DNA of 58,573 nucleotides from Alloascoidea hylecoeti (lineage: Eukaryota), in assembly GCA_001600815.1 (NCBI GenBank), contig BCKZ01000003.1, forward strand, positions 1,413,474 to 1,472,046, in the 5' to 3' direction. The notes beneath the pieces are model-generated. The model saw nothing but the letters and a program-made list of their open reading frames with translations. It did not search any database and was not told the origin of the DNA. How positions within the stretch are numbered: position 1 is the first letter of the stretch; each line of letters opens with the position of its first letter. Position numbers and translations under genes: made by a program. Positions 4,536-45,346 of this stretch are shown here, in pieces.

Positions 4536-5798
4536 TTATAAATGTTTTAAATATTTTTTCCTTAAATTTGCACTATAATCATAAATCGTAGCAGAACAGC
4601 CTGTAGTACAAACAACCATTCGTTTTGAATCAATATAAATTAATGGAATACCGGTAATATTTAGATATAAGTTTTTATATTCTTTTAATAATTTATGATC
4701 ATCTAAATCCCGAATCCTAATAGTATTATCATGATCAACTGAAAGGATTCTATTATCATTTATAGATAAAATTCTTGCTTTTTGATCTGATAAAATATCT
4801 ATTAACTCATGTGATTGTAAATCCCAAACGGTTATTTTGTCCTTTTCACCAACAAATAAATATTTATCACTTATTTCCATGGAAAATACATGATCATACT
4901 GAAATTTTTGGATTAATTGACCAGTTTCAAGATTCCAGGTTGTTATAACTTTACGTGCTTCACTATATATAATTCCATCATGAATGGAAATATCGCCAAC
5001 ATACCTTTTTCCTTTTAAACGGTATAGAAAATAAAACTGTAGTTCATGTTCAGAATTATCAAAACTTGATTTCCAAACCTCAATGTAAGCATTTCCTCTA
5101 GTATGTACAATATAATCATTGTATGTAACGACATTCTTTATAAATATATTACCAGTTATTTCTTCTGGCCATGGTACTATCAAACGATATATTGGTTTAA
5201 AATCTGGTAATTTCCAAATTATACAAGACCCATCAAATGAACCAGATACCATATATTTTTCATTAATATCAATACAAGTAACTGCATTCAAATGAAATTG
5301 GACATTAATATTTTTTATTAACTCGGATATTTCCATTGTGGTTAAATGATCAAGATATGGTACATTTAATTGTGTTAAAATCTCTTTATCTGGTTCACCT
5401 AATATGCTTAAACAATGAGAGGTTTCAATATCCCAAATTTTGATTGCCCTTCCTGAACCAGCTAAAAACAAGTTTTTAAAAAATTTAACGCAATACGTAG
5501 GCATGGCGTATGAAAACCCATATAATTTATACTTTAAATATTTATCATTTTTCAAATTTAATTCTAAGAGATACCTTTCTTTATATAATTCATACCATGA
5601 ATCAGTTTCTGAATCATCATTATTGTATTTCCAATATTTTTGATCACGAAAGTTTGATCTCCATAAATTATCATTATCAGCAATTTCTTTCCAAGAATTA
5701 GATACTCTTCTACATTCAAGTAAAGTTGTAGATGACAAATTCAAGAAGATTAACTCAAATATTTCATTTGGGAGACCGGGAACAAGATCGATTGTCAT
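4536..5798 (-). CDS. F-box/WD40 protein, family copy 1 (intact)
   Basis: F-box LPNEIFELIFLNL...CRRVSNSWKEI, linker SWYELYKERYLLE, WD repeats (VSGSFDGSCIIWK), family C-terminus IYDYSANLRKKYLKHL. First ATG is at 5798; the ORF-track start at 5825 is TTG. Confidence 0.9.
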   Translation of the reverse strand: MTIDLVPGLPNEIFELIFLNLSSTTLLECRRVSNSWKEIADNDNLWRSNFRDQKYWKYNNDDSETDSWYELYKERYLLELNLKNDKYLKYKLYGFSYAMPTYCVKFFKNLFLAGSGRAIKIWDIETSHCLSILGEPDKEILTQLNVPYLDHLTTMEISELIKNINVQFHLNAVTCIDINEKYMVSGSFDGSCIIWKLPDFKPIYRLIVPWPEEITGNIFIKNVVTYNDYIVHTRGNAYIEVWKSSFDNSEHELQFYFLYRLKGKRYVGDISIHDGIIYSEARKVITTWNLETGQLIQKFQYDHVFSMEISDKYLFVGEKDKITVWDLQSHELIDILSDQKARILSINDNRILSVDHDNTIRIRDLDDHKLLKEYKNLYLNITGIPLIYIDSKRMVVCTTGCSATIYDYSANLRKKYLKHL

Positions 5799-6663
5799 CT
5801 CAAGATTTTTCTGTGAGGATAGCAATTGCTTAAGTGGTTTACTATCGTAATTATGGGTTGCTAGCTCCCGAGTGTTTCAGTAGAAAGTTCCGGGAAATAG
5901 GCACCCTCACTACATTATAAATGTTGCATGGGTTGCAATCGTACTAATATTTTTGTTACACAACCTCTTCAACAATTTAATTCAGTTGTCCAAGTTACCT
6001 TTGTTTTAAAAAAAAGTCTACAAAAATAGAATCATAAGGTGGTTTACAAATAATCTTATCATGTCTATTTATAAGTGACCCATTTGTTGTTATTGGGAAA
6101 GTCGAATGAATCCGACTCTGACCGACCCCTGGATAAAATTATCAAAAGTCCGAATTAATTCAGATTTATCAGCAGTGCAGTTTGCATTTTCAGAGTGTGC
6201 TGCTCTAATATCTCACCTTCCTGAAAACCTCAATTTTGTTTTTAAATTTATTACTCCACACGCACGATTGGTATTTAATTTATTCATCAAAAGATCTAGG
6301 AATGGCAAAGTCATTTTTAATCTTGTTAGGCAATAAATTAAGTAGTTCCAAACGTCGACTATCCTTTCCCACCTAAGGTATGGTGGTAGTATGTTAAAAA
6401 GAAAGTAAATTTACGTGTCACATATGCTGGAGGTATTTTCCCTCGGCTAAGGAAGCTACCTACCCATACCTCACCTTCTAATGAAAGTAATTTTCCAGAA
6501 TTTGTTTCCTCGCAGAGTAAGTATAGCCAATACTTCTGTTTGGGGTTTGAAGGAACACCGAGGCGGACGATACCGGCGTATATACGTATATACAGTGTAA
6601 GACTTGTTAAGCAACGATTAACTGGAGTTTTATTTTTAAATTTAAATATAACATTAGATTAGA

Positions 6664-7044
6664 TTATAAATGTTTTAAATACTCTTTCCTTAAATTTACA
6701 CCATAATCATAAATAACAATATTCCATTCCCAAGTTAAAACGGCTATTCTATGCTGTGTAAATTTATCATTTCTCCAATTTAATTCTAAGAGATAACCTA
6801 TATAGTTCATACCATGAACCAGTTTCTAATTCATCATTATAGTATTTCCAATATTTTGGATCTTTGAAACTTTGATTTCCATATATGACCATTATCAACC
6901 ATTCGTTTCCATGATTTAGATATACATATATACTCTTCTACAATTAAGTAGAGTCTTTAATAGCAAGTCTAAGAAGATTATTTTAGATATTTCATTGGGA
7001 AGATCGGACAAATGATCGATTCTAGTCTCAAGATGTAAAAACAT
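6664..7044 (-). pseudogene. F-box/WD40 family copy 2, with almost the whole propeller deleted
   Basis: Frameshifted F-box (DLPNEISKIIFLDL...ELNWRNDKFTQH) joined directly to the C-terminal RIAVLTWEWNIVIYDYGVNLRKEYLKHL*. Upstream flank resembles that of copy 1 (CCCGAGTGTTT...GAAATAG). Confidence 0.85.
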
Positions 7045-8286: not shown

Positions 8287-9582
8287 TTATAAATGTTTTA
8301 AATATTTTTTCCTCAAATTTTCAGTAAAATCATAAATAACAACTTCACCTTCCTTAGTCAAAACAACTATTCTTTTTGAATCAATATAAATTGGTGAAAA
8401 AGGAACTGGGTCTGAATTTGAATATTCTTTCAATAATTTTTGATCATTTAAATCCCGAATCTTAATGGTACCAACATCACTAACATAAAGGATTTTATTA
8501 TCATTTATACGTAAAGTGTTTACGTTAGAATCTGATATAGTATTTATTAATTTATTTGTTTCTAAGTCCCAAACTGTTAGTTCGTAACAGTTATTAACAA
8601 ATAAGTATTGATCTTTCACTGTCATGCAAATTACTACATTATATCGAAATTCTTGGATTAATAGACCAGTTTCAATATTCCAGGTTGTTACAACATCACA
8701 TCCTTCGGTATATATAATATCATCATGGATGCAAATTCTATAAATGGTCGTTTCTCCTTTTGAACGATGTTGTAAATTAAACTGTAATTGATCATGATGT
8801 TCAAAATTAGCAATTGTAAAACTTGACTTCCAAATCTCAATATAAGCATTTCCCCTACAACATACAATATAATCATTGTATATAACGACATCATTTATAT
8901 ATATATCTTCACCTATACCTGTTGGTATTTTCAAAGAATCTATTGGTTTGAAATCTGGTAATGTCCAAATTATACAAGATCCATCAAATGAACCAGAAAC
9001 CAAATATTTATCATTAATATCCATACAACTGACTTCACCCAAATGAACTTTGGTATCAGTATCTTTTGTTAATTCCAATTTTTCCATATCTGATAAACTC
9101 TCTCTTATACTCTTAAGATTTGGTGTACCTAATTGTTTTAATATCTCAGGAGTAAGTTCCCCTAATACTCTTAAGCAACGAAAAGTTTCAATATCCCAAA
9201 TTTTTATTGTACCATCTTTTAAACCAGTTATAATCCAGTTTTTAAAACATTTACCGCAAAATACTTGAGTAGAAGGATCCTGAAGTTTATACTGTGTAAA
9301 CTTATCATTTTTCCAATTTAATTTCAAAGTATAACGATATTTATACAACTCATACCATGAATCGGTTTCTGAATCATCATTATAATATTTCCATGATTTT
9401 TGTTCTAGAAACTTTGATTTCCATATATAATCATTATCAACTATATGTTTCCATGATTTAGATACTCTTCTACAATTAAGTAAAGTTTTTGGTGGTAAAT
9501 CTAAGAAGATAATTTCTGATATTTCATTAGGGAGATCGGATACAAAATTGACTTCAATCTGAAGATCTTCGTGTAAGGACAT
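8287..9582 (-). CDS. F-box/WD40 protein, family copy 3 (intact, 431 aa)
   Basis: MSLH...SDLPNEISEIIFLDLP F-box; IITGLKDGTIKIWD and LVSGSFDGSCIIW WD repeats; ends IYDFTENLRKKYLKHL. Confidence 0.92.
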   Translation of the reverse strand: MSLHEDLQIEVNFVSDLPNEISEIIFLDLPPKTLLNCRRVSKSWKHIVDNDYIWKSKFLEQKSWKYYNDDSETDSWYELYKYRYTLKLNWKNDKFTQYKLQDPSTQVFCGKCFKNWIITGLKDGTIKIWDIETFRCLRVLGELTPEILKQLGTPNLKSIRESLSDMEKLELTKDTDTKVHLGEVSCMDINDKYLVSGSFDGSCIIWTLPDFKPIDSLKIPTGIGEDIYINDVVIYNDYIVCCRGNAYIEIWKSSFTIANFEHHDQLQFNLQHRSKGETTIYRICIHDDIIYTEGCDVVTTWNIETGLLIQEFRYNVVICMTVKDQYLFVNNCYELTVWDLETNKLINTISDSNVNTLRINDNKILYVSDVGTIKIRDLNDQKLLKEYSNSDPVPFSPIYIDSKRIVVLTKEGEVVIYDFTENLRKKYLKHL

Positions 9583-10785
9583 TTAGCAGTACTAGTGTAG
9601 TTGTTAAAATGGTTGTTATCTAATGTTTTTGTAGTTTTCACTAATATATTTTTTTTTTTTCCAATAAAAAATGGGAAGAAAAGAAAACGATTAGTACCTA
9701 ACAGATATACCCGGTTAATCTCCTGAATATGGTGTGTGACAAATCTACTTGTTTGTGGGTGAACTGATAAAGTGAGATCTGTGATATAATCTACGCCTGT
9801 TTCAGATATAAATTTACATGGTTTCTCTTCCCTATTCTCATGATACTCCGACCACCCTCTTTGACACCTTTACTTTAGATCTCTACAGGACACTTTCCGT
9901 ATACGGCTTTATACACTATCATTACCATTAGTGAGATTCCTTAATATAGTTGAAATAATTAATGAAGTTGTCTGTAATAGATGTAAGTTTATATATGGTG
10001 GCTTGAATAATAACATATACACCAGTAAAACATTATTTAAAATTTATATAAAAAGCTATTTACGGTGAGATACAATAGAATCTGAATGTTTGATTTATGG
10101 ATTTTACCAAGCAAAAGCTCTGAATTAATACTTATTAATAAATATGGAAGCTTCCCACTGATCGTGGCATAATGAAAAATTGAGTCTTATGAATGGACCT
10201 ATTTAACTCAAACCGCCAAATCTTCGAAACATTCTCAGACCATAAAAAGTTTAAAAGGGGAAAATATTGTGCAAAGATTATCAGGATAACAAAATTAAAT
10301 TGATAGTATTTATAATCATTCATCTTTGCTGTTGATTTTGTAATTCGTGGTTGCAACAGAACAATGTTGTGGTATTGGAGTATACAAACTCATCCAAGTA
10401 CTACGGTATAGATCAAGATTAATAAATTATTAAATGCTTCTTGTTTGTGAGTCAGAGAAAGGTTATAAGATATAAATTATTTATATATAAGAACGAGCTT
10501 TCTTTCGTCTGTTTACTCACCATCTTTGCTTATCCGAAGATGGCGATTTATGAAATTATTTAAAGCTTAAGTACTATCATATGTAGTTGTACATTATTTG
10601 GATTTCTCTATAAATGTTAATATGTTTTATATCTAAGGGATTAATGACGAAGGGCAAGTTTCCAACACTCAGTGCTTCACCAGTGTTGACATAACCAGTG
10701 ATCCAGTCTCGGGGCTGAAGGGTCGCCAAAGGAGACGATATTGTTGTTCAGGACTCGTTCAGAAACGATTAACTGGTGCATCATT

Positions 10786-11738
10786 TTAAAATTTCAATAT
10801 ATGATTAAATTGTAAATTTTTTAAATATTTTTTCCTTAAATATTTAAAATCATAAATAACAACATTACAATTGTTAGCCAAAACAATAATTCTTTTTGAA
10901 TAAATATAAATTGGTGAGCGAAGCCTAACGAGTTGATCCAAATTTGAATATTCTTTTAATAATTTTTGATCATTTAAATCCCGAATCTTAATAGTACCAA
11001 CATCACTAACATAAAGGATTTTATTATAATTTATAAATAAACAGTTTACTTTTCGATCTGGTAAAGAATTTAACAGTTTGGGATTTACAAACAAATAAGT
11101 ATTGATATTTCACTGTCATCATCATGAGTGCGGATTGTATAAACAGGCCCTTCTCCTGTTATAAAATGCTGTAATTTAAACTGTAATTTATCTTCAAAAT
11201 TGTCAGAATTTGAACTTGATTTCCAAACCTCAATATATGTTTCCCCCCTAAAACAATCAATATAATAATTGCATATAGCAACACCACATATATATATATT
11301 TTCACCTATTTCTCCTCGTGATATCAAGCGATCTATTGGTTCAAACTCTGGTAATTTCCAAATTATAGACCCATCCCCATGAACCAGAAACCAAATATTT
11401 GTTATTAATATCTATAGAACTAAAGGCACTTGATTGATAAAATGAGTTCTATTAAAAACTTAAAATTTGGTACTTGTTCATTTAATTGTTTTAAAATCTC
11501 AGGATTTGGTTCATCTAATAAAACAACGAAAGGTTTCATTATCCCAAACTTTTATTGTACCATCTTTTGAACCAGTTAACATCCAGTTTTTAAAAAATAT
11601 TTGTTTCCATGATTTAGAAACCCCTCTACAATTAAGTAAAGTTATTGCCGGGAAATCTGAGAAGATCATTTCCGATATTTCATTAGGGAGATCGGAAACA
11701 AAATCGGTTGTAGTCTGAAGATTTCTGTGTAAGGACAT
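10786..11738 (-). pseudogene. F-box/WD40 family copy 4 (internal deletions, frameshifts, stop codon mutated to CAA)
   Basis: Fragments at 11511-11738, 11085-11327 and 10786-11094 each match copy 3 (KILYVSDVGTIKIRDLNDQKLLKEYSN is identical). The upstream ~150 bp is also shared with copy 3. Confidence 0.88.
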
Positions 11739-12517
11739 TTAGCAGTTGTTAAAATGGTTGTTGTCTAATGTTTTTGTAGTTTTCACTAATATTATTGTTT
11801 TTCCTAGTAAAATATAGAAAGAAAAGAAAGAGGTTACGAATTTGAGACAGATACCCGTTTAATCTCCACAAATTTACTTACTTGTGGGTAAACTCTACTT
11901 TTATTTGCACTATTTAAAAACTGGTGATCATTGATATAGATTCCTTACAACGCTAAAATTAATGGCATTGTTTATAATACCACCGATATAATTAGTTATA
12001 ACCTATAAGCTAATAATATTTTTGGTATTTATATATTTAAATGCCTATTTTTATAATTAAAATGGTGTACAGCATATCGGATCGGGGGGATTCTGTCTTT
12101 GTGTTTCACCAAAGAGGAAGAAAGCCTTCTGGAACTCTTTCAACAACTTTAAGGGTATATGGTTTACTATGTATATACCTGTTCCTCACCATATACTCAA
12201 TGTTACTCATACAGGCCAAGCCTTGAGTCGGAGGTGGACAATAAGCCAATCCATATATAACTTATTTTCGGTAGGATTACCTCTACGAACAACTTCGGGT
12301 GCCAATCCCGGCCGAAAATTGGTTGAGGCGCCGATGATTTATGATCAGAATGGCCGATTTTAAGTGAAAATAACTTATCCTATTAATTTCGGTTCTTTTT
12401 TAAATTGAAATTTGAAAAATTAGAGGGAACATATATAACCTTAAAATTTAGGTTTAATATAATTTAAGCATATCTTGCAGATTTAATTACTATAGTGAAT
12501 AGTACAATCCCCACATA

Positions 12518-13620
12518 CAAGCGGAACACCCTTAAAAAAGTATTATAACCAGCCACTTAGTACTATACAAGGCATTTAACTGCTCTTAAAATAGAATATA
12601 TGTTCCTTAAATCCTAAAGATTATATTAGTGTATAAGTAACTTATGTAAGTTATACCATGATAATTTAAGCTGATTTTATTGTTGACGCCCTTGAGATCG
12701 TAAACGGTTACGACTCTTACGAGGCACGGCGTCAATTAGATTATGATCGATATTTTGTTCCATAGTGTAATATTTTGAAAGAAACATAATCATAGGTTAA
12801 CGTTATTTATTAATGAGACCAAGTGAAAAGCTCATATTCGTAATCACTGCCTTGCAATGAACTTTTGCGACGATATTCCCACTCAAGGACATCTCTCTCA
12901 TTGTCACGAAACTAATTCATTTTGATTTCAGCCCCAGGGAACTCATAAAAGGCACCTTCCATAAAGGACCATGTGTGCCTACATTTGATGGCTCCTCTTT
13001 TTTGTCTTCGGGACCCCCAACCGTACTATAATTATAAACTTACAATTTAGGAACACATTTCCAAATTCAGCCCATACACCTACAGACACAGACGTTCTTA
13101 CGTTATAAATGATTTTTGCTCAAAGGCCCGGCCTGAATTTTGTCGATCATATAAATTTCCTGTAATGAATAAAATTTGCCACTAAGTACAATACACCATC
13201 TCAAGCGCCCTGAGTCCAACCTAATCTAAAATTCTAAAAGTCATTCTACGATATATTTAAATGGATTCTTTTGGAGAAGTGTACATTAGAAGGTGTTCCA
13301 CTTACATGTGTGAGCTATACCATCCAAAATACCAGCATAATTGTCCAAATCTCATTCACTTTTCTACGTAGAAATTATATTCACATATAACAAATATATT
13401 ATTTTAATACAGAGAACTGTTTTGAGTTCGCAGTGTCCTCTTGGGATGGTTACTAACGAGCCAGTAACGAATTGTATAATACAATTTGACCATCAAACTC
13501 GTAATAGCCTTATCAAGGTACGTGAGTTCTGATATGAGAAATCTGCAAAGCGTTTGGGTCGTTCCAATTGCGAATATGTTGCGAACTTGCAATAGAGCTT
13601 AAGATTTTGATGAAGCTGCA
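12518..13620 (-). mobile_element. Degenerate Tc1-family DNA transposon
   Basis: Minus strand reads MN*FRDNERDVLEW and HNLIDAVPR/VVTVYDLKGVNNK (Tc1 DDE domain and C-terminus). The 3' untranslated part and TIR (TA|CAAGCGG...AAAAGTATTATAACCAGCCA at 12516-12555) are homologous to the element at 16027-16953. The 5' boundary is approximate. Confidence 0.7.
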
Positions 13621-14047
13621 GAATTATGCTTAGAAGTTTTAAACTTTTTAATTGCCTTTAGCTAATTTGATGCTATTATAACGGTAAAGGGGTATAAGGT
13701 TTCATATTCTTCTTTTCTTCTTTGTACATGATCAACATCGTATCTTTCAGGATCTACACACTTATCGATGTTGCAGAAAGAATGATGCAGAATCGCTTGG
13801 TATTTAAAATTATAATATGTGACATAACATAGCATAATAGCATATGGTAATATTGATTGATAATAGATATTATGTGAAATATTAGGAATCACGATTTCCG
13901 TTTACTTTTAATTTTCTTCTCCTTTTTATAAATATATAAATTAACCATTATCCTCTTGTGTTTATGGTTATATCTTTTAATATTGCTATAGACAAGTTCC
14001 CGTGCAAAACCAGATTTAAACATACTTTTCAAAACACTGTCATACAT

Positions 14048-15646
14048 ATGCTATTAGATCTTCCAGAAGAACTGTTATTCATTGTCTTTTGTGATCTGCC
14101 TTTTAATGAGTTTATCAAGCTGACGCAGACGTGTAAACAACTTTACAAATTTAACAATGATCATTCTATTCAATACATCTGCTATAAAATACACCCCTTT
14201 CTACGACCATTAAGAAATGAAACTTGGAAAGATGCTGCCAAAAGATACTTCATCTGTTTTAGTGAAGCTCCACAAAAATATCCTTATAAGCCTCAACGAC
14301 ATCAATTAGAAATAAACAAAAATTCAGATTCCCGAATATTTACTGCTCATGTCAATCAACTTCCCAATATTTCTCCTCTCCCTACAGCTGCAGGTGATCA
14401 TGATGCAATGACATCAGACTCTTCCAATTTTTTTTATATGCCCACAAATTGTCGGGCAGATGGTCACGGCGACCAACAAAAATTGGATGGTAATATGATA
14501 GCTAGCATGTCCTCTTTCGAGTATCTTCTTCTCAATTTTAACCATGGGACTTATTTTATTGGTAATAAATATTCTTGGATGGATCAACCTATAACAACTA
14601 CAAATTCTTTAAACTATGGAAATATTGAATATCATATTTCAAATTCATATGCTTCTTTAACCGATGGCCTTAACATAATTAATAATGCAGGGAATTCCCA
14701 AAGTCACGGCATAAAAAATAGAACAATAAATAAGATTATATCGAAATTTTCAAAATCTAAATCTGTTTTATGGGAAAAATCAATTAATTTCTTAACTGAT
14801 TCTCTATATTTTTATAAGTGGGAATTAAATGAAGAATATATTTTTTTATTGTGTTTTACTGATGTAATTTCAAATTCATCAATGTCTCAAGGGAACTTTA
14901 TATTAAAAGATTTTCATTTATTTGTCTTATCAAGGAAAACAGGAGAAGAAATTGGAAGATTGACTTGTTTTATGAAATCTGGTATGAGAACATCCTTGTG
15001 TATCTCTTCAACTCATATATTTTTATCCAATGGTATGGATATTATGTATCTATCATTTGAAGAGTTGTTCAAGTCACTTGAGCATGAGAATTCGAACATG
15101 TCTGCGATTGGTCAGTTTACCCAACTTACACCACCTGAAAATGATTCGCACCATACAGCTGGTTACACCTCATGTATAATAACACCTAGTAAATGGCACA
15201 TCTTATTGTCATCACCTTTAACGCCCTGGGATTTAAATATTAGCTCAAATGAACGATATCTTATCTGTCAAGCAGGTTTATCTGAATATGCAGGTCGAAT
15301 ACGTCATAAACGTGGTCAAGTCTGGATCAGTTCATATTTTATTTTTGATTTCTCTACTCATTCATTACATCAACTAGATATGTATCGAGGTGTTGAGAAT
15401 TGGAATAATAAATGTCGCTGGGTAATGGATGATGAACTTAATATTTATATGTTTGAAGATACATATTTAAGAACATTATTTCTTAATGCAATTCCTAAAT
15501 CACATCCATTAATTTCAGGCAATAATAATAAGGAAGTTAGTTTCGGCTCTCCAATAGATTATAATTATATCAATGAGTCTTATATTTTACCAAATGCCAT
15601 TCTTTCTCCTACTATTGGTTGGAAACTAAACTCAGAGTGTTGTTAA
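14048..15646 (+). CDS. F-box protein with an unrecognised C-terminal region (not a member of the WD40 family)
   Basis: ATG at 14048 begins MLLDLPEELLFIVFCDLPFNEFIKLTQTCKQLYKF, a canonical N-terminal F-box; 532 uninterrupted codons. Confidence 0.8.
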   Translation: MLLDLPEELLFIVFCDLPFNEFIKLTQTCKQLYKFNNDHSIQYICYKIHPFLRPLRNETWKDAAKRYFICFSEAPQKYPYKPQRHQLEINKNSDSRIFTAHVNQLPNISPLPTAAGDHDAMTSDSSNFFYMPTNCRADGHGDQQKLDGNMIASMSSFEYLLLNFNHGTYFIGNKYSWMDQPITTTNSLNYGNIEYHISNSYASLTDGLNIINNAGNSQSHGIKNRTINKIISKFSKSKSVLWEKSINFLTDSLYFYKWELNEEYIFLLCFTDVISNSSMSQGNFILKDFHLFVLSRKTGEEIGRLTCFMKSGMRTSLCISSTHIFLSNGMDIMYLSFEELFKSLEHENSNMSAIGQFTQLTPPENDSHHTAGYTSCIITPSKWHILLSSPLTPWDLNISSNERYLICQAGLSEYAGRIRHKRGQVWISSYFIFDFSTHSLHQLDMYRGVENWNNKCRWVMDDELNIYMFEDTYLRTLFLNAIPKSHPLISGNNNKEVSFGSPIDYNYINESYILPNAILSPTIGWKLNSECC

Positions 15647-16026
15647 TTAGGTTACAGATCTTATTTCTGTTTCCCAGGGTGTCTTGAAACGTGAAGACTG
15701 GAGCTCTCTTAAATGTTAACGCTAGTTTTCAGAACTTCAAATTTGTTAACTTACAGATTAGTATCATTATTAATACATCTATATCTACTTGATTTAAATT
15801 TTATATCTGGCATTATTTATTCATTTATATATTATTTTAAAAGAATATATAAAGATTATCGCTCCTCAAGCTCTACAAAATTTCTTTTTTTATCTTAGGC
15901 TTGGTTAGTCATTTCATTTATTTTTCATAATCATTATAGTTGAAATTTTTCTTGGTTTGCTAGCATTATATTTCATTTAAAATTTTATTTGGAAGTATTC
16001 TTATTAACTATTATATTATATAATTA

Positions 16027-16953
16027 CAAGCGTAAATATTGTAATTAGTGCAGATTTCGGAGTGGTACTTGTTTATTTGTTAGATCGTTATTGATTACCG
16101 GTACTGGCTTTCATCACAATTTCTTCACTAGTCTTTGCAATGCCTTCTCTTGAAATATCGAGAAAAGAACCCTCAACACTTATAATCTTTTCAATAACCT
16201 CAACGTGGTTTGATCTATTAATTGAAATATGTATGCGATCTGAGTAAACATAAGTTCTCAACTGTTGAAATAAGCAAAAAAACTTAATTACATGTAGCAG
16301 TGAAGTATCAATGACAATCTAAGAATTCAGCATCTAAAAGGCCGTTTCTGAATGCGAAGAACCAAATGAATAGAATGATATAATCTAAAGATATTTGGAG
16401 TGGTCTCAGGACGTTTGTACTTAGTGTTCGGTCATTACAGGACCCGGATCTAGATAAGTATAGGGCGTATACTTAACACTCAAGTCAGGCTTTTGGTGAG
16501 ATTATAGGGTCTCGATTTAAGCAGGATACCACATATATCCATAAATCTGGAATCTCGATGAATTGGTTTCGTGACAAAAAGATAGAGGTGTTGGAATGGC
16601 CTCCTTTTTGAATCCAATTGTGGAATCTCTCCAAATAAGTTCATCACCAAACTAGAATTAGGATTATGGTCCTTCCATATGTGTGTAAAAATGAGGAAAG
16701 ACAAAGTCGTTTTGTCTCTTTTAAAATATTGCAATTGGGACACCTCATGGGTCAAGATCTGACAATCTGATCAACTCCATTGTAGAGTAGCAACCGTTTA
16801 CAGGGTTAAGGGCTTCAACACCAAAGACTAGATTTAAGATCACAATTTATCTTCCCTAATATAATCTATAGTATAACTGATACAAAAAAGCTACTTGATG
16901 AACAATTTAATGCCGTATAGAATTCAATGGCTAGTCTTAATATTGCCTTCTTA
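16027..16953 (+). mobile_element. Degenerate, internally deleted Tc1-family transposon with TA flanks
   Basis: ASKRPFLNAKNQMNRMI*SK, FKQDTTYIHKSGISMNWFRDKKIEVLEWPPF../LNPI, DNLINSI / RVATVYRVKGFNTKD* are hallmark Tc1 motifs (QDNA..H, WP..SPDLNPIE, KG..TKY). Left end is TA|CAAGCGTAAATATT; the right TIR is degenerate and ends at about 16953. Confidence 0.8.
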
Positions 16954-17624
16954 TAAAAGGTGACCATACAATACTACCACATAATCGCGGTAATGATATA
17001 TTATTAATTCCTCAGCCAGAATATGATATTGAGGGTTTATAATTCATTGTGGTAGTGGTTAATAACTCAGGGTCCAATTGCGTTTAATTTTATTCGTATT
17101 TGCATGGTGTACGTGTGTATTGCTTAGTGAATGTTCGGATAATCCTTATCTGAACGGATCAACGGATCAACTCCTGTGAGACCTTACACTTACATGATTA
17201 GCTATAGTTACTCACAATCATTAATCGTTGTTGAAATACATTCGCTATGGAGCCTATGATACCAAATATCTTCTGTTTTTTATATCTTGAACCAATTGTT
17301 AGATTTAAAGCTTAATTAATCCCAGAATTTTTCCCTACCCAATTAAATTGCATATGAAGATACACGTTTTAATGGGGATGACAAAATAAGTTAAAAAAAT
17401 ATATATATACCAAAAACCACGTTTTTACAAAAAATTATTCATACTCTATTTTATATAGAATACAAATTCCGGTATAAATTCTATAAATTTGGGGCGAGTG
17501 CTGTGTTAAAGAAGTTTATATTATTTATACTACACAAAGTAACTCAATATCTTCATCAATTCACACGACTAAAAATCTTTTAATTTTATAAATATAGAAT
17601 AAAGAGAAATTGGGGATTATATCA

Positions 17625-19097
17625 ATGCTTTCTTCAACTAATTTTATTTTATTGGGTTATTTGATTTCTACTTCCTTAGGAAGGGTAATTAAAAGAGATG
17701 ATACTTCAAGTTCAGATTCAGTTGAACCGGATAGTGTTTTTGGTTCTATTAGACATTATCCACCTGTAAATAATAATTTCAATGATCTTGATAAGTTATT
17801 TGATGCATCAACAGGAACTAATGGTGGAATATACAACACATCTTTTGTGCCTGAAGAATCATATGGGGTTTATGATTTTTGCAATATGCCTCATCTTAGA
17901 CCAACGGAATATGTTATACCAGAAGGTTTTACTCTTGAATATGTTGAAATTATGCATAGACATCATAAAAGAACACCATATGCTTCTAATCTTTTCCCAA
18001 AAGAAGATTTATCACTTTATTGCGATGATGTTTCAAATTATTATTATGCACAACCAAAAAGTGAAGATAGTTATGATGCTGTAAGGATCTCATGGGAAAA
18101 TTTCCAAGATCCTGTTAATCCTTTTAGCTATAGTAATACTGGTTATAATGGTTCTTGTCAATTTCCTCAGATTAGTTATGCTGGACTTATTGATTCTCAT
18201 CAACATGGTGTTGATCTTTATAATTTATATGGAAATAAATTAGGATTTTTACCAAAGAAATATGATCCTAATGTGGTCAGATATCGAGCAACAAGTAATG
18301 TTATCACATCTCAAGTAGCTAGTGCTGTAGTGAAAGGAATGTTCCCAGATGAAGAAGATGTTCCAATTTTGGTACAAAGAATAGCTTCTGATTCACTTGA
18401 ACCTCAATATCCATGCAGTTTTGCTGATGATGTCCGATCAAATTATCAACACTCAGATGAATGGTATGAACATTTGAACAAATCAAAGAGTCTTTATGAA
18501 GAATTAGATGCAATTAGTGGAGTTGATCCCAAATCATCTGGATGGCATTCATGGTTTGATCATTACTTTGATAATTTCGCCTTTAGATTATGCCATCAAC
18601 AACCATTACCCTGCAATCTAAATAATAGAACAGATTGTGTATCTCTTGAACAAGCTGAACAAGTTTTCAGATTAGGAGATTATGAATATAATTATATCTT
18701 TAGGGAAGCTAAGAATTCTACTTTATATGCTGCAACCCATTATGGTGTCTATCTTTTAGAGCTTAAATCTCATATTGAAAATAAAATTGCTGGTACTGAA
18801 AGTTTAATATACAGACACAATATTGCTCATGATGGTTCTATTGCTCCATTATTAGGCGGTTTACAAATTTCATATCTTAGATGGCCAGGTATGGGAGCTG
18901 AAGTATCATTTGAACTTTGGAAAAAACAAGTAGATGGTAATTATTACATTAGAGTATTATATGGTGGTCAACCTTTAGAAACTACAGGACCTTTGGGAAA
19001 TATTGATTTGATTGAGGTTGATAAGTTCTTGGCTTATATTGATACATTAACCGGAGAGAATGGTAAAAATGTTGTATCTCTTTGTACATCATCTTAA
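17625..19097 (+). CDS. Secreted histidine acid phosphatase (branch 2, phytase-like)
   Basis: Signal peptide plus KR site, RHHKRTP catalytic motif (variant of RHGxRxP), distal AHD motif and several Cys. First ATG at 17625. Confidence 0.88.
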   Translation: MLSSTNFILLGYLISTSLGRVIKRDDTSSSDSVEPDSVFGSIRHYPPVNNNFNDLDKLFDASTGTNGGIYNTSFVPEESYGVYDFCNMPHLRPTEYVIPEGFTLEYVEIMHRHHKRTPYASNLFPKEDLSLYCDDVSNYYYAQPKSEDSYDAVRISWENFQDPVNPFSYSNTGYNGSCQFPQISYAGLIDSHQHGVDLYNLYGNKLGFLPKKYDPNVVRYRATSNVITSQVASAVVKGMFPDEEDVPILVQRIASDSLEPQYPCSFADDVRSNYQHSDEWYEHLNKSKSLYEELDAISGVDPKSSGWHSWFDHYFDNFAFRLCHQQPLPCNLNNRTDCVSLEQAEQVFRLGDYEYNYIFREAKNSTLYAATHYGVYLLELKSHIENKIAGTESLIYRHNIAHDGSIAPLLGGLQISYLRWPGMGAEVSFELWKKQVDGNYYIRVLYGGQPLETTGPLGNIDLIEVDKFLAYIDTLTGENGKNVVSLCTSS

Positions 19098-19292
19098 TTG
19101 GCAAGTAGACATACTAATATTATGAGTAATAAACGTGTAAGGTCTTAAAACTTTATACTTGATTGTAAATACTACAGCTATAGCTTTAATTTATATAAGT
19201 TCAATTGCAATTATAACGGGTAATATGGTGTATTCAATAATATAATTTAAGAGTATATCTAACATCACACTTTAATATTAATATTCATACTA

Positions 19293-20727
19293 CAGTAATA
19301 GTCCTTGACCAGGCATATCCAAAACGTAAAACCTGCAGACATTGTATCCTCTCCAGAACCACCAACAATGGAAAAATCAAAAAGAAAACCTAGAGCTCCT
19401 GCTTCAAGAGATAAGGAACCTAGAATACTAAACATTATGGTCAGAAGTCATCTGGAAACCAATACATCAACCAGAACGATTGCAAAGGATGCCGGGTTGC
19501 CCCGTTTAACGCTTACATATAGAATCAAGGTGGACAATCCAATTCAGCATCAAAAGAAGCCTACCAAACTTTTTCAAAGGAAGATGAAAATCGGCTAACG
19601 AATGTGCTACTTTAATATGCAAAAATGGGTATGGCGGCTGATAACGAATAGCTTTATTCTTTGGTGGATGCGTTGGTGGACCTAAGGTATTCTAGAAAGA
19701 AAAAGTACCCCAAACCATCAACACTAAAACTAAACAAGAACACCACCACTCACCATTATGTGAGTTAGAATTAGATAGGAAACTTTTTAAAGAGGAATCT
19801 AGTCATCACCTTGAAGAAAGCTAAAGGATTGGATTCCTATAGGGTTTTTATTAGTAATAAAGAAGACCTGGAAAGATGGTTCAAAACCTTAGGTGACTTG
19901 ATCCAAGAAAATCGTTACGAACCAAGAGATATTTATAATTGCGATGAGACAGGCTATCAAATGGGTGAGACCGCCGATATTTGGCTCTGTATTTTGCCTT
20001 CCGAGGAGCCAAGTGGTCCTCAATTGGGTGCTACAAAAGCTGAACTCTCCACCTCATTAGAGTGAATAAATGCTGTTGAATATGCTGTTATATGGAAGAA
20101 GTAATGTCTTCCAATATTATATCGGGATTTGAGAAGAGTGGTATTTGGCCACTTAGTTTGAGTGTTGTGGTGAACCGGGTAAAGTCTATTTCTGTGGATG
20201 TACCACCACCAAACGATAACTTGCTTAATCTCTATAAGGAATATGAAAGAGGGTTTTCGGATGAGGATGCTGCCATAGACTTTTATCAGAAATTAGACAT
20301 TTTGTATGTTAAAAGGGATGCAGATAAGAAATATGCAGAGACATTTGCTAAATGGAGAATTTTAGAGCAGCAACAAACAATCAGTTTAATTTCCAGAATT
20401 AAGCACCCGGAGCTTTATAAAAATAAAATGACACAATTGAGAAAGGGTAGAGGCAAGGCCAAGTTGATCAACAAAAATCCAGTGGCTACTGATGAGCAAT
20501 TAAGAGCTGAAATGAACACCATTAAAAACTGAGTAAAAAAGAAGAAACAGCCCACAATCTTTGAATTACGAACAGAAGAAGCTGTGAAAAATAGTCAGGA
20601 GAATATATTAGGATAAGTAGTTTATATATACACAATATCCAGTGAATTCATTTTTATTTGCGTTGGTGGTTGTTTTTGTAAGCATTATTTGTTTGGGCCA
20701 TGTCTAAGCTCAATGTGACTACCCTTA
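19293..20727 (+). mobile_element. Pogo/Fot1-type transposon remnant (frameshifted, DDE core deleted)
   Basis: HTH-like STRTIAKDAGLPRLTLTYRIK, WFKTLGDLIQENRYEPRDIYNCDETGYQMG and NIISGFEKSGIWPLS are typical of pogo/Fot1 DDE_1 transposases. Begins TA|CAGT; degenerate inverted ends (TAGTC..TTGA..AG.CAT..CC.AAAC). Confidence 0.82.
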
Positions 20728-21166: not shown

Positions 21167-21828
21167 ATGCGCTTACACAAAAAGATTAAGATGGCAATCG
21201 ATCTCATTTCCGATCTTCCTAATGAAATATTGGAAATAATCTTCTTAGATTTGCCCCCAACAACTTTACTCATTTGTAGAAGTGTATCTAAATCATGGAA
21301 ACAAATAGTTGCGAATGATAATATCTGGAAATCAAAGTTTCAAGATCAAAAATCATGGAAACACTATAATGAAGATTCAAAAACTGATTCATGGTATGAG
21401 CTGTATAAAGAACGATATCTTTTAGAATCAAATTGGATTTTTACTAGATCAGAAGATTCTACAATAAGAATTTGGGATAATGAAACTTTTCAATGCTTAA
21501 GAATTTTAGGTGTACCAGATCCTGATATTTCAATACAGTTTACAATTATGGGAATATCCGAATTAATAAAAAAATTGATATTAAAGATCATTTGAGTTTT
21601 GCTAATTGTATTAATATGAATGACAAATATTTGGTTTCTGGTTCAAATGATGGCTCTTGTGTAGTTTGGAAATTGTCGGATTTTAAACCAATAAAACATC
21701 TGATAACGGAAACAGAAGGATTTTTTGTGGCTATAAATGATGTCGCTTTATACAATGATCCTTTGGTACTAAAAATCTATGGCCTGCTTTTTTAATTGGA
21801 GGTAATTTGAAAAGGTTTGTTATTTTAC
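21167..21828 (+). pseudogene. F-box/WD40 family copy 5 (multiple deletions and frameshifts; 3' end fused to an eIF3a fragment)
   Basis: F-box SDLPNEILEIIFLDLP and WD fragment YLVSGSNDGSCVVWK. The last-blade segment KNLWPAFLIGGNLKRFVIL matches copy 6 KLNLWPVFSISADSKRLAAF. Confidence 0.88.
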
Positions 21829-29773: not shown

Positions 29774-31213
29774 TCATTTTGCCAATTGTCGTTTGGAAAA
29801 AATATTTCCCGGATTATTATCCTGGTGATCGAATTGACGTTTTGTACCGATTATACTTATACTCGGTAGTCTACAAGATTCCTTTCCTTTGGAAAGATTA
29901 TTCAGACTTATAGCGTTAGGCAAATTGAATATACTTGATGTGATTTGTGAATTGCAGACATCATCCTTATTTTTATTTTCGTTTTCATTTTCGTTGACGT
30001 TGTTTGAAGATGAAGAGTCATCAACTGTATCTTTTAATGGACTTCTATTATTAATGCCATTAACCATATTTTCTAATCTCTTTATCTCCAGCTTTATTTC
30101 TTGACCTTGTCGATATATTTGATCTGAAAACATATGAATCATCTGTTGATTCTGTATTTGGATCATTTCATTAAGACGCTCAAACATTGTATTATTCTGC
30201 TCCAGGACTGTATTTACCACATGCTTAAGATTATTAGTATTAACATCATTCACTTCTTTCACGAGATGTTGAGCGTCTAGATTAAAGTTTGGTGATAATA
30301 ATGTAGACTGTATTCTATTAGTAGACAAATTTATCTCTTGTTGAATATTGGAGCTCGTTCTTTGAAATTGATTCATTAGTTCTTCCACTTTGTGAGAAAA
30401 AGGATCCAATGGCGTTCGAATTTCGCGAGGAACATTTAATATAGAAGGAGATATATTTGGTCTTGACGGTACCAAAGTATTATGATCAGTAATATCACAT
30501 GGAGCGCTTGAATCTCTTGATAAATCATTTTGGTGTTGAGTCTGTGGGTCAAAAGTCATATTTGCTGAACCTTCACTCAATACCTCATTCTTACCCTTCT
30601 TCTTGTCTTTCTTCCTTTTCTTGCTCTCCTTTTTATATAGAAAATCGCTGATCTCTTTCATCATATTATAGTAAGGTAATCTTTTGGATAATACCTCGGA
30701 TGTTACGTTTTGTTCCATTTCCCTAAAACCTTCCAACAAGCCAATGAAATGGCGTTGGCAAGTCCTTCCTGAGGGGATAGGGGTATCTTCTTTTTCTAAT
30801 CCCTTTTCAATGGTTTCTTTATGAAATCTAGCCGCGAAATCAATCCACTGTGAAGTAGTTGTTCCATGAGTAACATCGTATGTTTCTAGCTCCTTTAAAA
30901 CGAGTACGAAAACTTCGTTATGCCTCCTTTTAAATTTGAATCTATTCGTTAACTCGTGTCTTTTGTTGGGTTGTTGACCGACAACTGTTTTGTCTTGATG
31001 AACATCTTCCCCATCGCCAGGATGATTTTCTACGATGGGTAATACATCCGATCTATTTTCATTAATATTATTGTTTGTAATGTTGCTGTTCTCCAGATTC
31101 TGACCTTTGCCGTTTTCTGGAAGTTGCTCAACTGGAACAAACACTGGAACTGTTCGCCCATCTACCGCATTGTTTGTATCAACCGATGGGCAAACCATTA
31201 AATCCCCAGACAT
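29774..31213 (-). CDS. 479-aa protein with a probable Myb/SANT-like (trihelix) DNA-binding domain and a coiled coil
   Basis: Long ORF. Segment FKFKRRHNEVFVLVLKE...QWIDFAARF...GRTCQRHFIGLLEGF has Myb/SANT-like spacing, followed by a basic NLS-like tract (KKRKKDKKK). The domain call is tentative. Confidence 0.7.
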   Translation of the reverse strand: MSGDLMVCPSVDTNNAVDGRTVPVFVPVEQLPENGKGQNLENSNITNNNINENRSDVLPIVENHPGDGEDVHQDKTVVGQQPNKRHELTNRFKFKRRHNEVFVLVLKELETYDVTHGTTTSQWIDFAARFHKETIEKGLEKEDTPIPSGRTCQRHFIGLLEGFREMEQNVTSEVLSKRLPYYNMMKEISDFLYKKESKKRKKDKKKGKNEVLSEGSANMTFDPQTQHQNDLSRDSSAPCDITDHNTLVPSRPNISPSILNVPREIRTPLDPFSHKVEELMNQFQRTSSNIQQEINLSTNRIQSTLLSPNFNLDAQHLVKEVNDVNTNNLKHVVNTVLEQNNTMFERLNEMIQIQNQQMIHMFSDQIYRQGQEIKLEIKRLENMVNGINNRSPLKDTVDDSSSSNNVNENENENKNKDDVCNSQITSSIFNLPNAISLNNLSKGKESCRLPSISIIGTKRQFDHQDNNPGNIFSKRQLAK

Positions 31214-34352: not shown

Positions 34353-34399
34353 CTGTCTTAGTAAACGATACGATACCTGATTGTAATTGGCTGGTCATG

Positions 34400-41836: not shown

Positions 41837-43426
41837 ATGGCAAAAGGGAAGATAACAGCAAGAGGTTTGGTCCCCCAAATTGAATCTTTGAATAAGTTCA
41901 AAGGTGAGATGAACATTAAAATTGAAGAACTCAACACCAAGTTTGATAAAGTTCTGGAAGTGTTATCGAGAATTGAAAAAGATAGAGATGCTTGGAAAGA
42001 TGCGCATGCACAAGCTCCTTCGAGTAAGGAACCACTCCATAATCCTTCTTCAACACTCAATATGTCCTTATATACAAGCCTGGCCATGGGAGATACAATC
42101 GATCTTGTTTCCCGTCTCCCCAAAGGAGTATCTGAAAAGGTCTTCTTATATTTGACACAAACGACTTTACTCATTTGTAGAAGGGTATCTAAATCATGGT
42201 AGCAAATAGCTGATAATGACAATATATGGAGATCAAAGTTTCAAGATCAAAAATCTTGGAAATTTTATAATGATTCAGAAGCCGACTCATGGTATGAATT
42301 GTATAAAAAACGGTATCTTTTGGAGTCAAATTGGAAACATGGTAAATTTACAAAGTAACTAAGTGGTCATTCTGACAAAGCATTATGTATTAAATTTTTA
42401 AAAACTGGATTTTAACGGGATACAAAATAAAAATCTGGGATAATGAAACTTTTTAATGCTTTAAGAGTTTTAAATGGACCAAATTTTAAGATTTTAAGAA
42501 AATTACCAGATCTTGGGTATTTAGAAACCAATTTAAAAACATTAGTAATCCAAGGAATACTTAAATGTATCAAATTTCATGTGGGCTGTTACTTGTATTG
42601 ATAATTTGGACGTTACCAGATTTTGGACCAATAGATCTTTTGATAATGCCAATAAAATTACATGATTCTATGGTTTTAGGTGTTGTTGCTTTATACATTA
42701 TATTGTATGCTGTAGGGCAGATGGTTATATTGGAGTTTGGAAATTAAGTGCTGATAATTTAGGACATATAAACAACACTGTTTTAAAGCAGATTATAGTC
42801 ATATTTATGGTATTTGCATTCATGATGGTATTATATATAGTCATGGAGATTATATTGTGAGATCCTGGAATATTGAAACTGATCAATTAATTCAAGAATT
42901 TCGGTTTGTTCTTTTAAAATGCTTTAAAGTAAAGAATCAATACTTAGTTGGTGTAGAAAACGACGAAATAAAAGTTCTGGATTTACAATCAAATAAATTA
43001 ATAAAGATTTTTTTAAATGAAGGAAAAGGATTTGAAAATTTAGCTTCATTATTTATAGCGGAAGATAAAATCATTTATGTTAATAATGATTGTACTATTA
43101 GGATTCTGAATTTGAATGATCTAAAATCACTTAAAGAAATTAAAGGTTCAAAAAATAGAAAATTAAACGATGTGCCTACTTGTTCAATTGGTGCTAATTC
43201 GAATAGTAAAATCATTTATGTTGATGATGATTGTCCTAACATGAATTTAAATGAACTAAAATCACTAAATGAAATTAAAGATTCAGAAAATAGAAAATTA
43301 AATGGTGTGCCTACTTGCTCAATTGGTGCTGATTCGAAAAGGCTAGCTGTTGTTTATTTGGATGGTGATGTTGTCATTCATGATTTTACTGAAAATTTAA
43401 GGAAAAAATATTTAAAACATTTATAA
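41837..43426 (+). pseudogene. F-box/WD40 family copy 8, with an in-frame 75-aa N-terminal extension, a premature stop, frameshifts and an internal tandem duplication
   Basis: Family start MSLY at 42062, TAG after VSKSW, broken WD repeats, duplicated last blade, and C-terminus IHDFTENLRKKYLKHL. Confidence 0.88.
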
Positions 43427-44602
43427 TTTATTGAAAATTGAAAATAAACATCGTTTTTTAAAGAAATATCAATTGGGTTGTTTATAATTAATATATCGAC
43501 TCGCTATTGCAAGAGAAGTGTAACGTTAATATACCCATACTATTAATTATAAGTAAGATATTATCGTATTAATATCAATATAATTTAACTTGATTGTGAC
43601 TTACATATTTATAAAATATTTTCTTTCTATGACTATGCAAATAACCTATTATTATAACTTTTGACCTTGCGATTTTTTATATTGCCACTTCTGAAATATA
43701 GGATCAAGGATAAAAATGACTCCTATAGTATGTGAATTCAAATCGATCCTAATACATAAGCAATAGAGTCACCAAGGGAAGTCTGTGGATTCTATTTTAA
43801 AACTAGATACAAATATATTGAGATGAGGATATACATGTAAGTTTATAGTATGATTTATAAGAGATTCAAGTGAAATGATGCCCTTTTTTTTATGCAGTCA
43901 TTTCACTTAATTTAGACCATTGTGATAAGCAATTATTAGTCATAATATGCACTAAGTCTTCGACCATGTGAACAGATTTTTTGTGAACAAAGTGGCATAT
44001 TAGTTAAACCCCAAATACCCGAGCAATGTCATGGGATTGGTAAATTTGTGAGCAATAAACTAACAATCTCAAAATGAAAATTCAACTCCAACAACATTAT
44101 TAGGGTGGACTACAAGTCTACAACACAATAATTAATAGCTTAATCGGAAATGGAATATTCTCTTGAAAGTCTCGATAACAATTATCACTCTTATAATGCT
44201 TAACTACAATGATAACTGGTCATAAATTAATAATTTTATTTTAGAAGACCAAAACCTGATACATATTTAATTTTCTAATCAATGTGTGTACTTACTAGTT
44301 AAAAAACAACAACTTCCATAGTTAGGTAAAACTATAAGAGCTGATACTTTATAATTTTGTAAGTTTTCTAATTTTTTACCTAAGTCTGGCTTGCACCATA
44401 CGAAACTTAATGGAAGTTATAACAAGGCTGATAATTATTTATCAGACTGATCAAACCTTATACCACATATAGACTCATATCAAATGGTCGACTGAAAAAT
44501 GTATCACATGGCCAAAACATAGTGACTTGTGTGACCGAATATTAGTATATATGGTGGCCGATATTAACCAACTTTCTTTTCTTCCCATTTGTTTTATATG
44601 GG

Positions 44603-45346
44603 TAAATATCATTTCGGTGGTGTTATATATATGGATATTAATGATAAATATTTGGTTTCTATTTCATATGATGGGTCTTGTATAATTTGGACATACCAGA
44701 TTTTAAACCAATACAAATTCTGATGACAGTACGAGAAAGCTCTTTAATTATATATTGTGCCGCTTTATACAATGATTATCTTGTATGTTGTAATAAGCGT
44801 GATATTAAGGTTTGGAAATCAACCGTCGATAATATGGAACATTAACAGTTTAATTTACATCACCGTTTGCGTTACTCGTATTTGCATTTACAATGGTATT
44901 ACCTATGGCCATGGTAGATTTCAGAAGATGTAAGATCTTGGAGAATTTGACCAGTTTCAATAATCTAAGAATTTAAATATAATCAACTGGTATGCATTGG
45001 AGTAGAGAGGATCGATACTTATTTGTTGGTGACGTTCACAAACTAACAGTTTTGAATTTAAAAAGAAGTAAAAAAATATTTTATAAGATGAGAGGCCAGC
45101 TAGATTATTTATATCCAAGGCTAATAAAAAATCATGTTAATTTTGATTATACTATTAATATTTGGAAGTTAAATCATCTATTTAAAGAATATAAAAAGTT
45201 GGAAAATGAAAAATTAAATTTGTGGTTTCCTTTATTAATGAATGGTGATTCAAAAAGGCTAGGTGCTCCAACTATGGATGGTGATATTTTAATTTATGAT
45301 TTACTGAAAATTTAGGGAAAAAATATTTTATTTGAAATATTTATAA
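44603..45346 (+). pseudogene. F-box/WD40 family copy 9 (5' half missing, heavily decayed)
   Basis: MDINDKYLVSISYDGSCIIW, then KLNLWFPLLMNGDSKRLGAPTMDGDILIYD. The 3' flank is nearly identical to that of copy 8 (TATTGAAAATTGAAAATAAA.ATCGTT.TTTAAAGAAAT). Confidence 0.85.

Follow-up and report, generated by a model that had tools for sequence, protein, structure and literature searches.

In textbooks, budding yeasts exemplify an F-box receptor set that is small and fixed; to our knowledge Saccharomyces cerevisiae has only two of the F-box/WD40 type, Cdc4 and Met30. The nearest proteins solved with Skp1 and phosphodegrons are beta-TrCP (FBXW1A) and FBXW11 (for example 1p22 and 6wnx), which consist of an F-box, a helical linker and a seven-bladed WD40 propeller. 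Fungal proteins with an F-box and seven WD repeats are described in PMC11750091 as Pof11 in S. pombe and Fbx23 in Aspergillus and Penicillium, without a homologue in S. cerevisiae. Here we analyse an array of nine F-box/WD40 loci in 58,573 nucleotides of DNA from Alloascoidea hylecoeti (contig BCKZ01000003.1, positions 1,413,474 to 1,472,046; hereafter the window), together with the family to which they belong. The family has the beta-TrCP layout, and beta-TrCP/FBXW11 is the family's best structural match and is sister, in phylogeny, to the fungal orthogroup of which the family is part; the degron contacts of beta-TrCP are kept in this orthogroup and in one family member, P0012. Unlike beta-TrCP, the array family has no dimerisation (D) domain, its remaining, derived copies keep 0-3 of 15 degron contacts, an insert of 25-45 residues separates its blades 1 and 2, and its C-terminal tail reads NLRKKYLKHL. 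The fungal orthologues, 430-800 residues in length, have a long N-terminal region and hardly vary on the top face, whereas the array family runs to dozens of copies, lacks the N-terminal region and has a hypervariable top face.

We searched the window by tblastn with copy 6, one of the intact genes, and then with all 20 paralogues found in protein databases. Copy 6 gave 19 high-scoring segment pairs (HSPs), which grouped into exactly nine loci, and none of the 20 queries gave an HSP outside them. This is the number of related copies claimed in an earlier note on this DNA, made from the sequence alone, and its places for three intact and six broken copies also held, apart from the start of copy 8, set at 41837, where homology begins only at 42062 (Table 1). 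The C-terminal tail that the note had described, IYDF/YxxNLRxKYLKHL, is present in all three intact copies, and HSPs extend to the last residues in copies 2, 4, 8 and 9. In all four family open reading frames (ORFs) scanned, Pfam gave F-box-like PF12937 at 39.3-48.3 bits (cut-off 24.3), PF00646 at 35.9-46 bits (cut-off 20.5) and WD40 PF00400 at 31-54 bits (cut-off 27). Alternative decoding of CUG would affect at most two residues, the three intact genes containing 0, 0 and 2 CTG codons.

The family extends well beyond the window. Searched against 5.8 billion proteins, copy 6 had 31 matches at E<=0.001 among 2951 candidates, 20 of which are full- or near-full-length paralogues 48-100% identical to it, the next match being 26% identical. 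Each of the 20 is a single-member cluster on a short contig, three are the window's intact genes, and the 190 pairs among them have 41.8-67.0% identity. A HMMER profile search of 1.84 billion cluster representatives yielded at least 13 short family ORFs among its best 150 matches. Two of these are window pseudogenes; the remaining 11 do not exceed 74% identity to any full-length member or 71% to the window, and so count as further loci. The paralogue count that had been called for therefore comes, in the protein databases, to 20 full-length proteins and at least 11 additional truncated ORFs, and the family as a whole to at least 20 intact and at least 17 broken members. No closer relative in any other species was found in the database searches, the next relatives being 26-37% identical, which bears out the proposed lineage-specific expansion. 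Since no pair falls between 67% and 99% identity, we infer that all paralogues come from one species.

The substrate-binding face of the derived copies

We aligned 17 derived copies, P0012 and 28 members of the orthogroup, taking the D-A and B-C loops of the propeller as its top face. Conservation in the orthogroup is highest on the top face, with a mean column entropy of 1.14 against 1.54 in strands, 2.12 in the F-box plus linker and 2.22 in bottom loops, as expected of a receptor with a fixed ligand. The order is reversed in the derived copies, where the top face reaches 2.10 and the strands, the F-box plus linker and the bottom loops have values of 1.07, 0.77 and 0.75, respectively (top versus bottom, Mann-Whitney p 2e-13). 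Nineteen of the 48 propeller positions that are near-invariant in the orthogroup are hypervariable in the family, and 18 of the 19 lie on the top face. The ancestral residue is kept at 40 of the 48 positions in P0012 and at 17-24 in the derived copies.

The positions affected include the degron pocket itself. Fifteen residues of beta-TrCP1 contact the phosphodegron in the list of Wu et al. 2003 as quoted in PMC6499770: Y271, R285, S309, L311, S325, L351, N394, R431, G432, A434, S448, L472, R474, Y488 and R521. We anchored this numbering on P0141, in which all 15 residue types match. The orthogroup consensus is the same as beta-TrCP at 13 of the 15 contacts, each held by 24-28 of the 28 sequences, and P0012 agrees with that consensus at 14; the 17 derived copies agree with it at 0-3. 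Among the derived copies 12 of the contact positions carry 4-11 residue types each, and those equivalent to R431, G432 and L472 are gaps in most. The residues lost include the phosphate-binding R285, S309, S325 and R474 and the Asp-contacting Y488. Aromatic residues are enriched among the replacements, at a fraction of 0.22 in the hypervariable sites compared with 0.14 in the propeller as a whole (Fisher p 8e-5). What stands out is how cleanly the hypervariability is confined to the degron pocket, and that a parent of ancestral type persists beside the derived copies.

Selection on the three intact window genes was estimated as Nei-Gojobori dN/dS (the ratio of non-synonymous to synonymous divergence) with 95% bootstrap intervals. 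The ratio was 0.27-0.36 in the F-box plus linker, with all intervals below 1, 0.58-0.90 in the non-top propeller codons (interval 0.35-1.48 over the three pairs) and 1.16-1.64 in the 79-83 top-face codons (0.63-3.08); for the whole propeller it was 0.72-1.03. The top face thus evolves at or above the neutral rate. Because its intervals include 1, positive selection is not demonstrated, and neutral drift after loss of the pocket fits equally. Whole-gene dS was 0.35-0.42 among the three genes and 0.32-0.53 once the truncated copy 7 was added. This last range, together with the ceiling of 67% identity among the 20 paralogues, qualifies the suggestion of birth and death with fast turnover: death is plain, six of the nine window copies being broken, and recent births are unproven. 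In a neutral simulation, with substitutions only and the base composition of the window, 0 of 5000 copies of a 416-codon gene were open at 0.1-0.25 substitutions per site. The intact genes are therefore not accidents; of the real copies, moreover, six of nine have decayed.

We propose that the single beta-TrCP-like (Pof11/Fbx23-type) substrate-receptor gene of this yeast, encoding a subunit of a Skp1-Cul1-F-box (SCF) ligase, was multiplied by tandem DNA duplication. The copies have kept its canonical F-box and seven-bladed WD40 scaffold under purifying selection, and P0012 retains the ancestral phosphodegron pocket. In the derived copies nearly every pocket residue has been replaced by a wide variety of others, the change being limited to the top, substrate-binding face. 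These proteins are predicted still to dock on Skp1-Cul1; because the phosphate-binding Arg and Ser residues are gone, they would no longer read the ancestral DSGxxS-type phosphodegron. Each would instead present a different, aromatic-enriched top surface, so that together they would make up a diversified set of ubiquitin-ligase receptors. The derived copies are thus probably SCF receptors of retargeted and diversifying specificity, forming a repertoire renewed by birth and death. Their targets could be the cell's own proteins or foreign ones. A narrower version, in which the family would act as an innate-immunity-like system whose shared ligase-docking module carries hypervariable faces under selection to bind and destroy an ever-changing set of foreign or selfish proteins, such as viral proteins, killer toxins or transposon products, while the housekeeping phosphodegron function stays with the conserved parent, seems to us unlikely.

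The same measurements can be read as decay. The derived copies might be by-products of runaway tandem duplication that have lost the pocket, have no specific substrates and drift neutrally on the top face, the F-box and scaffold being kept only since misfolded or Skp1-titrating products would be harmful, or since the copies would act as generic Skp1 sponges or dominant-negative regulators of the parent. Top-face ratios with intervals that include 1, a whole-propeller ratio of 0.72-1.03, the broken window copies and the at least 11 truncated ORFs elsewhere are all compatible with such decay. It accounts less well for reading frames of ~1250 nt that do not stay open by chance at this divergence, for the low ratio in the F-box, for variation confined to one face above strongly conserved bottom loops and strands, for the enrichment of that face in aromatic residues, which is typical of binding sites, and for the retention of twenty intact members. 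We regard decay as a possible but doubtful explanation, and retargeted SCF receptors as the better one.

Origin within the beta-TrCP-like branch

P0012 also provides the conserved parent that the earlier note had proposed to look for. It has 517 residues, ~100 of them additional at the N terminus, and far more canonical WD40 repeats than the other paralogues. Outside the family it is most similar to F-box/WD40 proteins of fungi, led by one of Peziza echinospora (37% identity, 271 bits) and including proteins of Absidia (33% identity), Mortierellales and Glomeromycota; true beta-TrCPs with the D domain PF12125 score 120-133 bits. An exhaustive profile search found many co-linear relatives that align in a single stretch over profile positions ~9 to 417. 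Members of the orthogroup, which is represented in early-branching budding yeasts, include proteins of Sugiyamaella lignohabitans (XP_018735361.1, annotated 'Met30p'), Trichomonascus vanleenenianus and Magnusiomyces paraingens, three from Lipomycetaceae, and Dothideomycetes proteins (Alternaria among them) with the JGI label 'F-box and WD-40 domain protein 1/11'. They have in common a blade 1-2 insert followed by SGSSDxSCIIWxLPxFKP and a C-terminal tail, DFxxGLDxxYL. As these relatives possess both features, which the earlier note had remarked on in the array, the insert and the tail are ancestral and not innovations of the family.

We placed the family in a maximum-likelihood tree of 84 rows, comprising 18 family members, 40 of the orthogroup, 11 Mucoromycota-type proteins, 4 beta-TrCPs, 5 FBXW7s, 2 Met30/SconB and 4 others; the partial members P0013 and P0020, and P0285, were left out. 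Support values are from the Shimodaira-Hasegawa-like approximate likelihood-ratio test (SH-aLRT). The family forms one clade (100) on a stem of 1.2 changes per site, and P0012, on a short end branch of 0.15, is sister to the other 17 members (100). This clade is nested (97) among budding-yeast orthologues. Lipomycetaceae, then Pezizomycotina, then Mucoromycota branch off successively, as vertical descent predicts. The fungal clade of 57 rows is supported at 99, and its grouping with beta-TrCP at 98; FBXW7 and the Met30/SconB rows P0023 and P0025 branch outside. Labels were checked against the PDB, where P0235 scored 1036 bits to FBXW7 and P0141 901 bits to beta-TrCP1. An approximately unbiased (AU) test rejected a grouping of the family with FBXW7, picked after the tree was seen (delta lnL 78.9, p 0.0039). 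The yeast orthologue P0181 scored 203 bits to beta-TrCP and 184 to FBXW7.

The fold is consistent with this placement. An AlphaFold2 (AF2) model of copy 6 (mean predicted local distance difference test score 75; the propeller reaches ~90, while the free F-box scores low) has seven four-stranded blades, not the eight of Cdc4/FBXW7. Foldseek ranks FBXW11/beta-TrCP1 first (E 1.5e-23, TM 0.64-0.74), ahead of FBXW7 (1.5e-20) and Cdc4. The derived copies have ~14 residues before the F-box, leaving no room for an N-terminal D domain, in line with the earlier description of genes lacking a long N-terminal or dimerisation region. PF12125 is found in the true beta-TrCPs P0123, P0141, P0152 and P0153 and is not among the precomputed families listed for the 20 paralogues.

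Several points weigh against our account of the family. Top and bottom loops were assigned from the DSSP strands of this single AF2 model. The top-face dN/dS, from three sequences, is not significantly above 1. The paralogues outside the window, and P0012, would belong to the window's genome by inference only. The family stem is long, and the tree is an IQ-TREE 'quick' search under LG+C20 with SH-aLRT support only. Finally, by sequence the top natural match in the PDB is FBXW7, at 131.5 bits with copy 6 and 176 with the family profile, beta-TrCP/FBXW11 reaching only 81 and 124. This ranking, along with the Atlas automatic name 'sconB' for the orthogroup and the 'Met30p' annotation of the Sugiyamaella orthologue, would suit descent from Cdc4/FBXW7 or Met30. 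The best-scoring stretch for FBXW7 in both PDB searches is the F-box, linker and first blade (query 6-140), and for the question of origin the ranking is outweighed, in our view, by the fold, the number of blades, the AU test and the tree. With FBXW7 and Met30 outside the clade of beta-TrCP and the orthogroup, with the AU test against FBXW7, with seven blades and the Foldseek order, and with the pocket contacts and the scores of P0181 on the side of beta-TrCP, descent from Cdc4/FBXW7 or Met30 is highly improbable. A Cdc4/FBXW7 origin, suggested by the PDB ranks, was thus set aside, and the names 'sconB' and 'Met30p', contradicted by the tree, were not adopted.

Origin from a beta-TrCP-like branch is therefore supported in a broad sense, and the refuting outcome named at the outset, placement of the family away from the beta-TrCP clade, was not seen. 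As to the narrower name FWD-1/Pof11 used in the earlier note, the orthogroup is probably the group of S. pombe Pof11 and Aspergillus and Penicillium Fbx23. It is likened to them through the literature description and the JGI 'FBXW1/11' labels rather than by alignment; the description of Pof11 and Fbx23 in PMC11750091 fits the orthogroup.

Several fungal orthologues (P0181, P0183, P0190, P0196 and others) carry upstream of the F-box a short motif, (D/E)SESG(V/I)(A/G)F, that the derived copies lack and that loosely resembles a DSG-type degron.

Layout of the array and its surroundings

The copies lie in three clusters with housekeeping genes between them, at 4.5-11.7 kb (- strand), 21.2-26.1 kb (+) and 42.1-45.3 kb (+). 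Copies of the same cluster have common flanks, ~100 nt upstream of the ATG and 50-150 nt past the stop, examples of which are given in Table 1. Since both the 5' and the 3' flanks are common within clusters, duplication was of tandem DNA, the unit being the gene with its own flanks; retroposition is ruled out by the common promoter-side and 3' flanks. The long DNA repeats of the window are all F-box/WD40 copies.

Table 1. Family loci, shared flanks and other features of the window (positions counted from its first letter)
Feature	Position	Strand	Description
Copy 1	4536-5798	-	Intact, 420 aa; database protein P0017 (100% in tblastn); Pfam F-box-like 43.6 bits, WD40 37.4 bits
Copy 2	6664-7044	-	Remnant: first ~100 codons in three frames and last 28 codons, internal deletion; tblastn HSPs E 2e-5 to 6e-11
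Copy 3	8287-9582	-	Intact, 431 aa; identical to P0011
Copy 4	10786-11738	-	Pseudogene: two frames, frameshift near 11100-11118, internal gaps
Copy 5	21167-21828	+	Pseudogene: 142-aa ORF (database fragment P0197) with internal deletion in blade 1, then frameshift; homology stops at 21768
Copy 6	23750-25000	+	Intact, 416 aa; one residue different from P0001; protein used for modelling
Copy 7	25477-26148	+	Truncated: 223-aa ORF with F-box and blades 1-2, then stop; no homology downstream of the stop by tblastn with the 20 paralogues
Copy 8	42062-43426	+	Pseudogene: frames 2, 1, 3, 2, at least three frameshifts
Copy 9	44603-45346	+	Pseudogene: first ~165 codons missing, at least 3 frames used
5' flanks of copies 3 and 4	9439-9723 and 11595-11867		81% match
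3' flanks of copies 8 and 9	43327-43474 and 45243-45394		83% match
ORF fused to copy 8	41837-42061	+	~75 residues, coiled-coil-like; 41875-42001 has an inverted, 81%-identical partial copy at 27231-27355
Three consecutive ORF pieces	19302-20532	+	Probable decayed DNA transposon (see text)
High-depth stretch	~23193-23283		~90 nt just upstream of copy 6
Second F-box gene	13964-15646	+	560-aa ORF between the first two clusters; N-terminal F-box PF00646 at 23.5 bits (cut-off 20.5)
Lys/Glu-rich ORF	21759-22445	+	229 aa, no Pfam family; starts where copy 5 homology stops
Unassigned ORF	29774-31213	-	479 aa, no Pfam family matched
GH16 (Crh/Utr2-like) gene	1107-2869	-	Two ORFs, 1107-1946 and 2231-2869, each matching one half of the Pfam model
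Short-chain dehydrogenase region	56479-56787		Contains the window's five N letters
Second short-chain dehydrogenase copy	58267-58573		75% identical, runs off the window end

The ATG at 41837 belongs to an unrelated ORF that is fused in frame upstream of the first exon-like piece of copy 8. The database paralogue P0019 likewise bears a foreign, coiled-coil-like N-terminal extension, and such fusions may recur in the F-box/WD40 family, to judge from these two sequences.

The statement that the copies are interleaved with transposon debris stood in part. No transposase, reverse transcriptase or integrase family of Pfam was found in 51 intergenic and other ORFs at E<=0.001, no Pfam transposon family in 11 window ORFs at E<=5, and no long-terminal-repeat-like repeats in the window. 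The three consecutive ORF pieces before copy 5, however, carry motifs that we take to recall a pogo/Tc5-type transposase. The nearest Atlas clusters to an ORF at 19.1-21.1 kb carry DDE_1 (20% of members) and HTH_Tnp_Tc5 (67%), with scores of 0.95 and 0.91, and 19.1-21.1 kb is present at 3-5 x single-copy depth, with variant letters, in three DNA runs. We take the pieces, as a lead, for the probable remains of a multi-copy DNA transposon.

Just upstream of copy 6, the high-depth stretch falls in a bin at ~200 x single-copy summed contig depth in the data sets X1, X3 and X4. Many contigs continue from it into very AT-rich sequence. The stretch gave no tRNA or Rfam match and may derive from mitochondrial DNA or from other DNA present at high copy. 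Over the copies themselves summed contig depth was 9-16 x the single-copy level, which does not translate into a number of copies. Contigs of X1, X3 and X4 differ from unique window DNA by 0 letters (for example over 11675-19386) and therefore hold no information on presence or absence of copies. In the metatranscriptome X7, which comes from the study that produced X4, a single contig with just two 18-letter matches was recovered, too little to speak for or against expression.

The window is AT-rich (GC 0.27-0.37), and the genes around the copies are, by Pfam, ordinary fungal genes: a GH16 chitin-transglycosylase-like gene, a histidine acid phosphatase, a flavohaemoglobin, a D-lactate-dehydrogenase-like FAD oxidase, an MFS transporter, a Ste11-type MAPKKK with SAM and Ras-binding domains, a cyclophilin-RRM protein, Vps11/Pep5, a RhoGEF and a short-chain dehydrogenase. 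The best database proteins for the window's Vps11 are 39-43% identical, those with names being from Wickerhamomyces, Nadsonia, Kuraishia and Ogataea-clade yeasts. No tRNA genes or Rfam families were found in the window. The split of the GH16 gene could be an intron or a disruption, and the second dehydrogenase copy is another tandem duplicate. The second F-box gene is without WD40 or any further Pfam domain and is unrelated to the array family.

These surroundings bear on whether conflict drives the repertoire, be it against double-stranded RNA viruses, killer toxins or transposon proteins, or in nonself recognition or drive. A conserved effector module, a hypervariable recognition face and birth-and-death turnover form the pattern of known immune-type families, and repeated pogo-like remnant DNA does lie among the copies. 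The neighbours, however, are housekeeping genes, and nothing in the window links the array to a virus, toxin, mating or incompatibility locus; the three DNA sources hold no strain polymorphism, and positive selection on the top face is not demonstrated. Conflict as the driver is, on this evidence, decidedly unlikely, and retargeted SCF receptors, whatever their targets, remain the reading that we prefer.

Comparison with known receptor families

Within the fungi, the closest comparison is the orthogroup in which the family is nested (97) and with which it has in common the insert, the motif SGSxDxSCIIWxLPxFKP and the ancestral tail. In the orthogroup clusters that were looked up, each named species has a single sequence. 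In the literature covered by a full-text search, as far as its texts were available, we found no paper on a comparable F-box expansion in yeasts or fungi.

Two kinds of multigene family resemble the array in other respects. Nematodes and plants have lineage-specific F-box and MATH-BTB expansions, and rodents an Fbxw gene cluster; these are large tandem families of cullin-ligase receptors with many pseudogenes, in which a conserved adaptor-binding domain is joined to a fast-evolving substrate-binding domain, mostly of the FBA, FTH, kelch or LRR type. The array family differs from them in its recognition domain, a WD40 propeller of the beta-TrCP type, in its budding-yeast host and in having a conserved parent gene that can be identified. 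The fungal HNWD and het-e/d/r STAND proteins have hypervariable WD40 repeats beside NACHT or HET effector domains, and their highly similar repeats are shuffled by concerted evolution. The array likewise has a WD40 propeller in the role of a hypervariable recognition surface within a multigene family of a fungus, but its effector module is an F-box, and its blades are not repeats of near-identical sequence.

Expanded, fast-evolving F-box families were already known, and what stands out here is the host, an early-branching budding yeast, the beta-TrCP-type propeller and the surviving parent of ancestral type. Each site of the ancestral copy can be set against its counterparts in the probably retargeted descendants, the docking half frozen and the degron pocket rewritten, which makes the family a compact natural experiment on how a WD40 degron receptor changes specificity. 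The yeast is also a microbe amenable to experiments on whether the expansion of ubiquitin-ligase receptor families serves genetic conflict.

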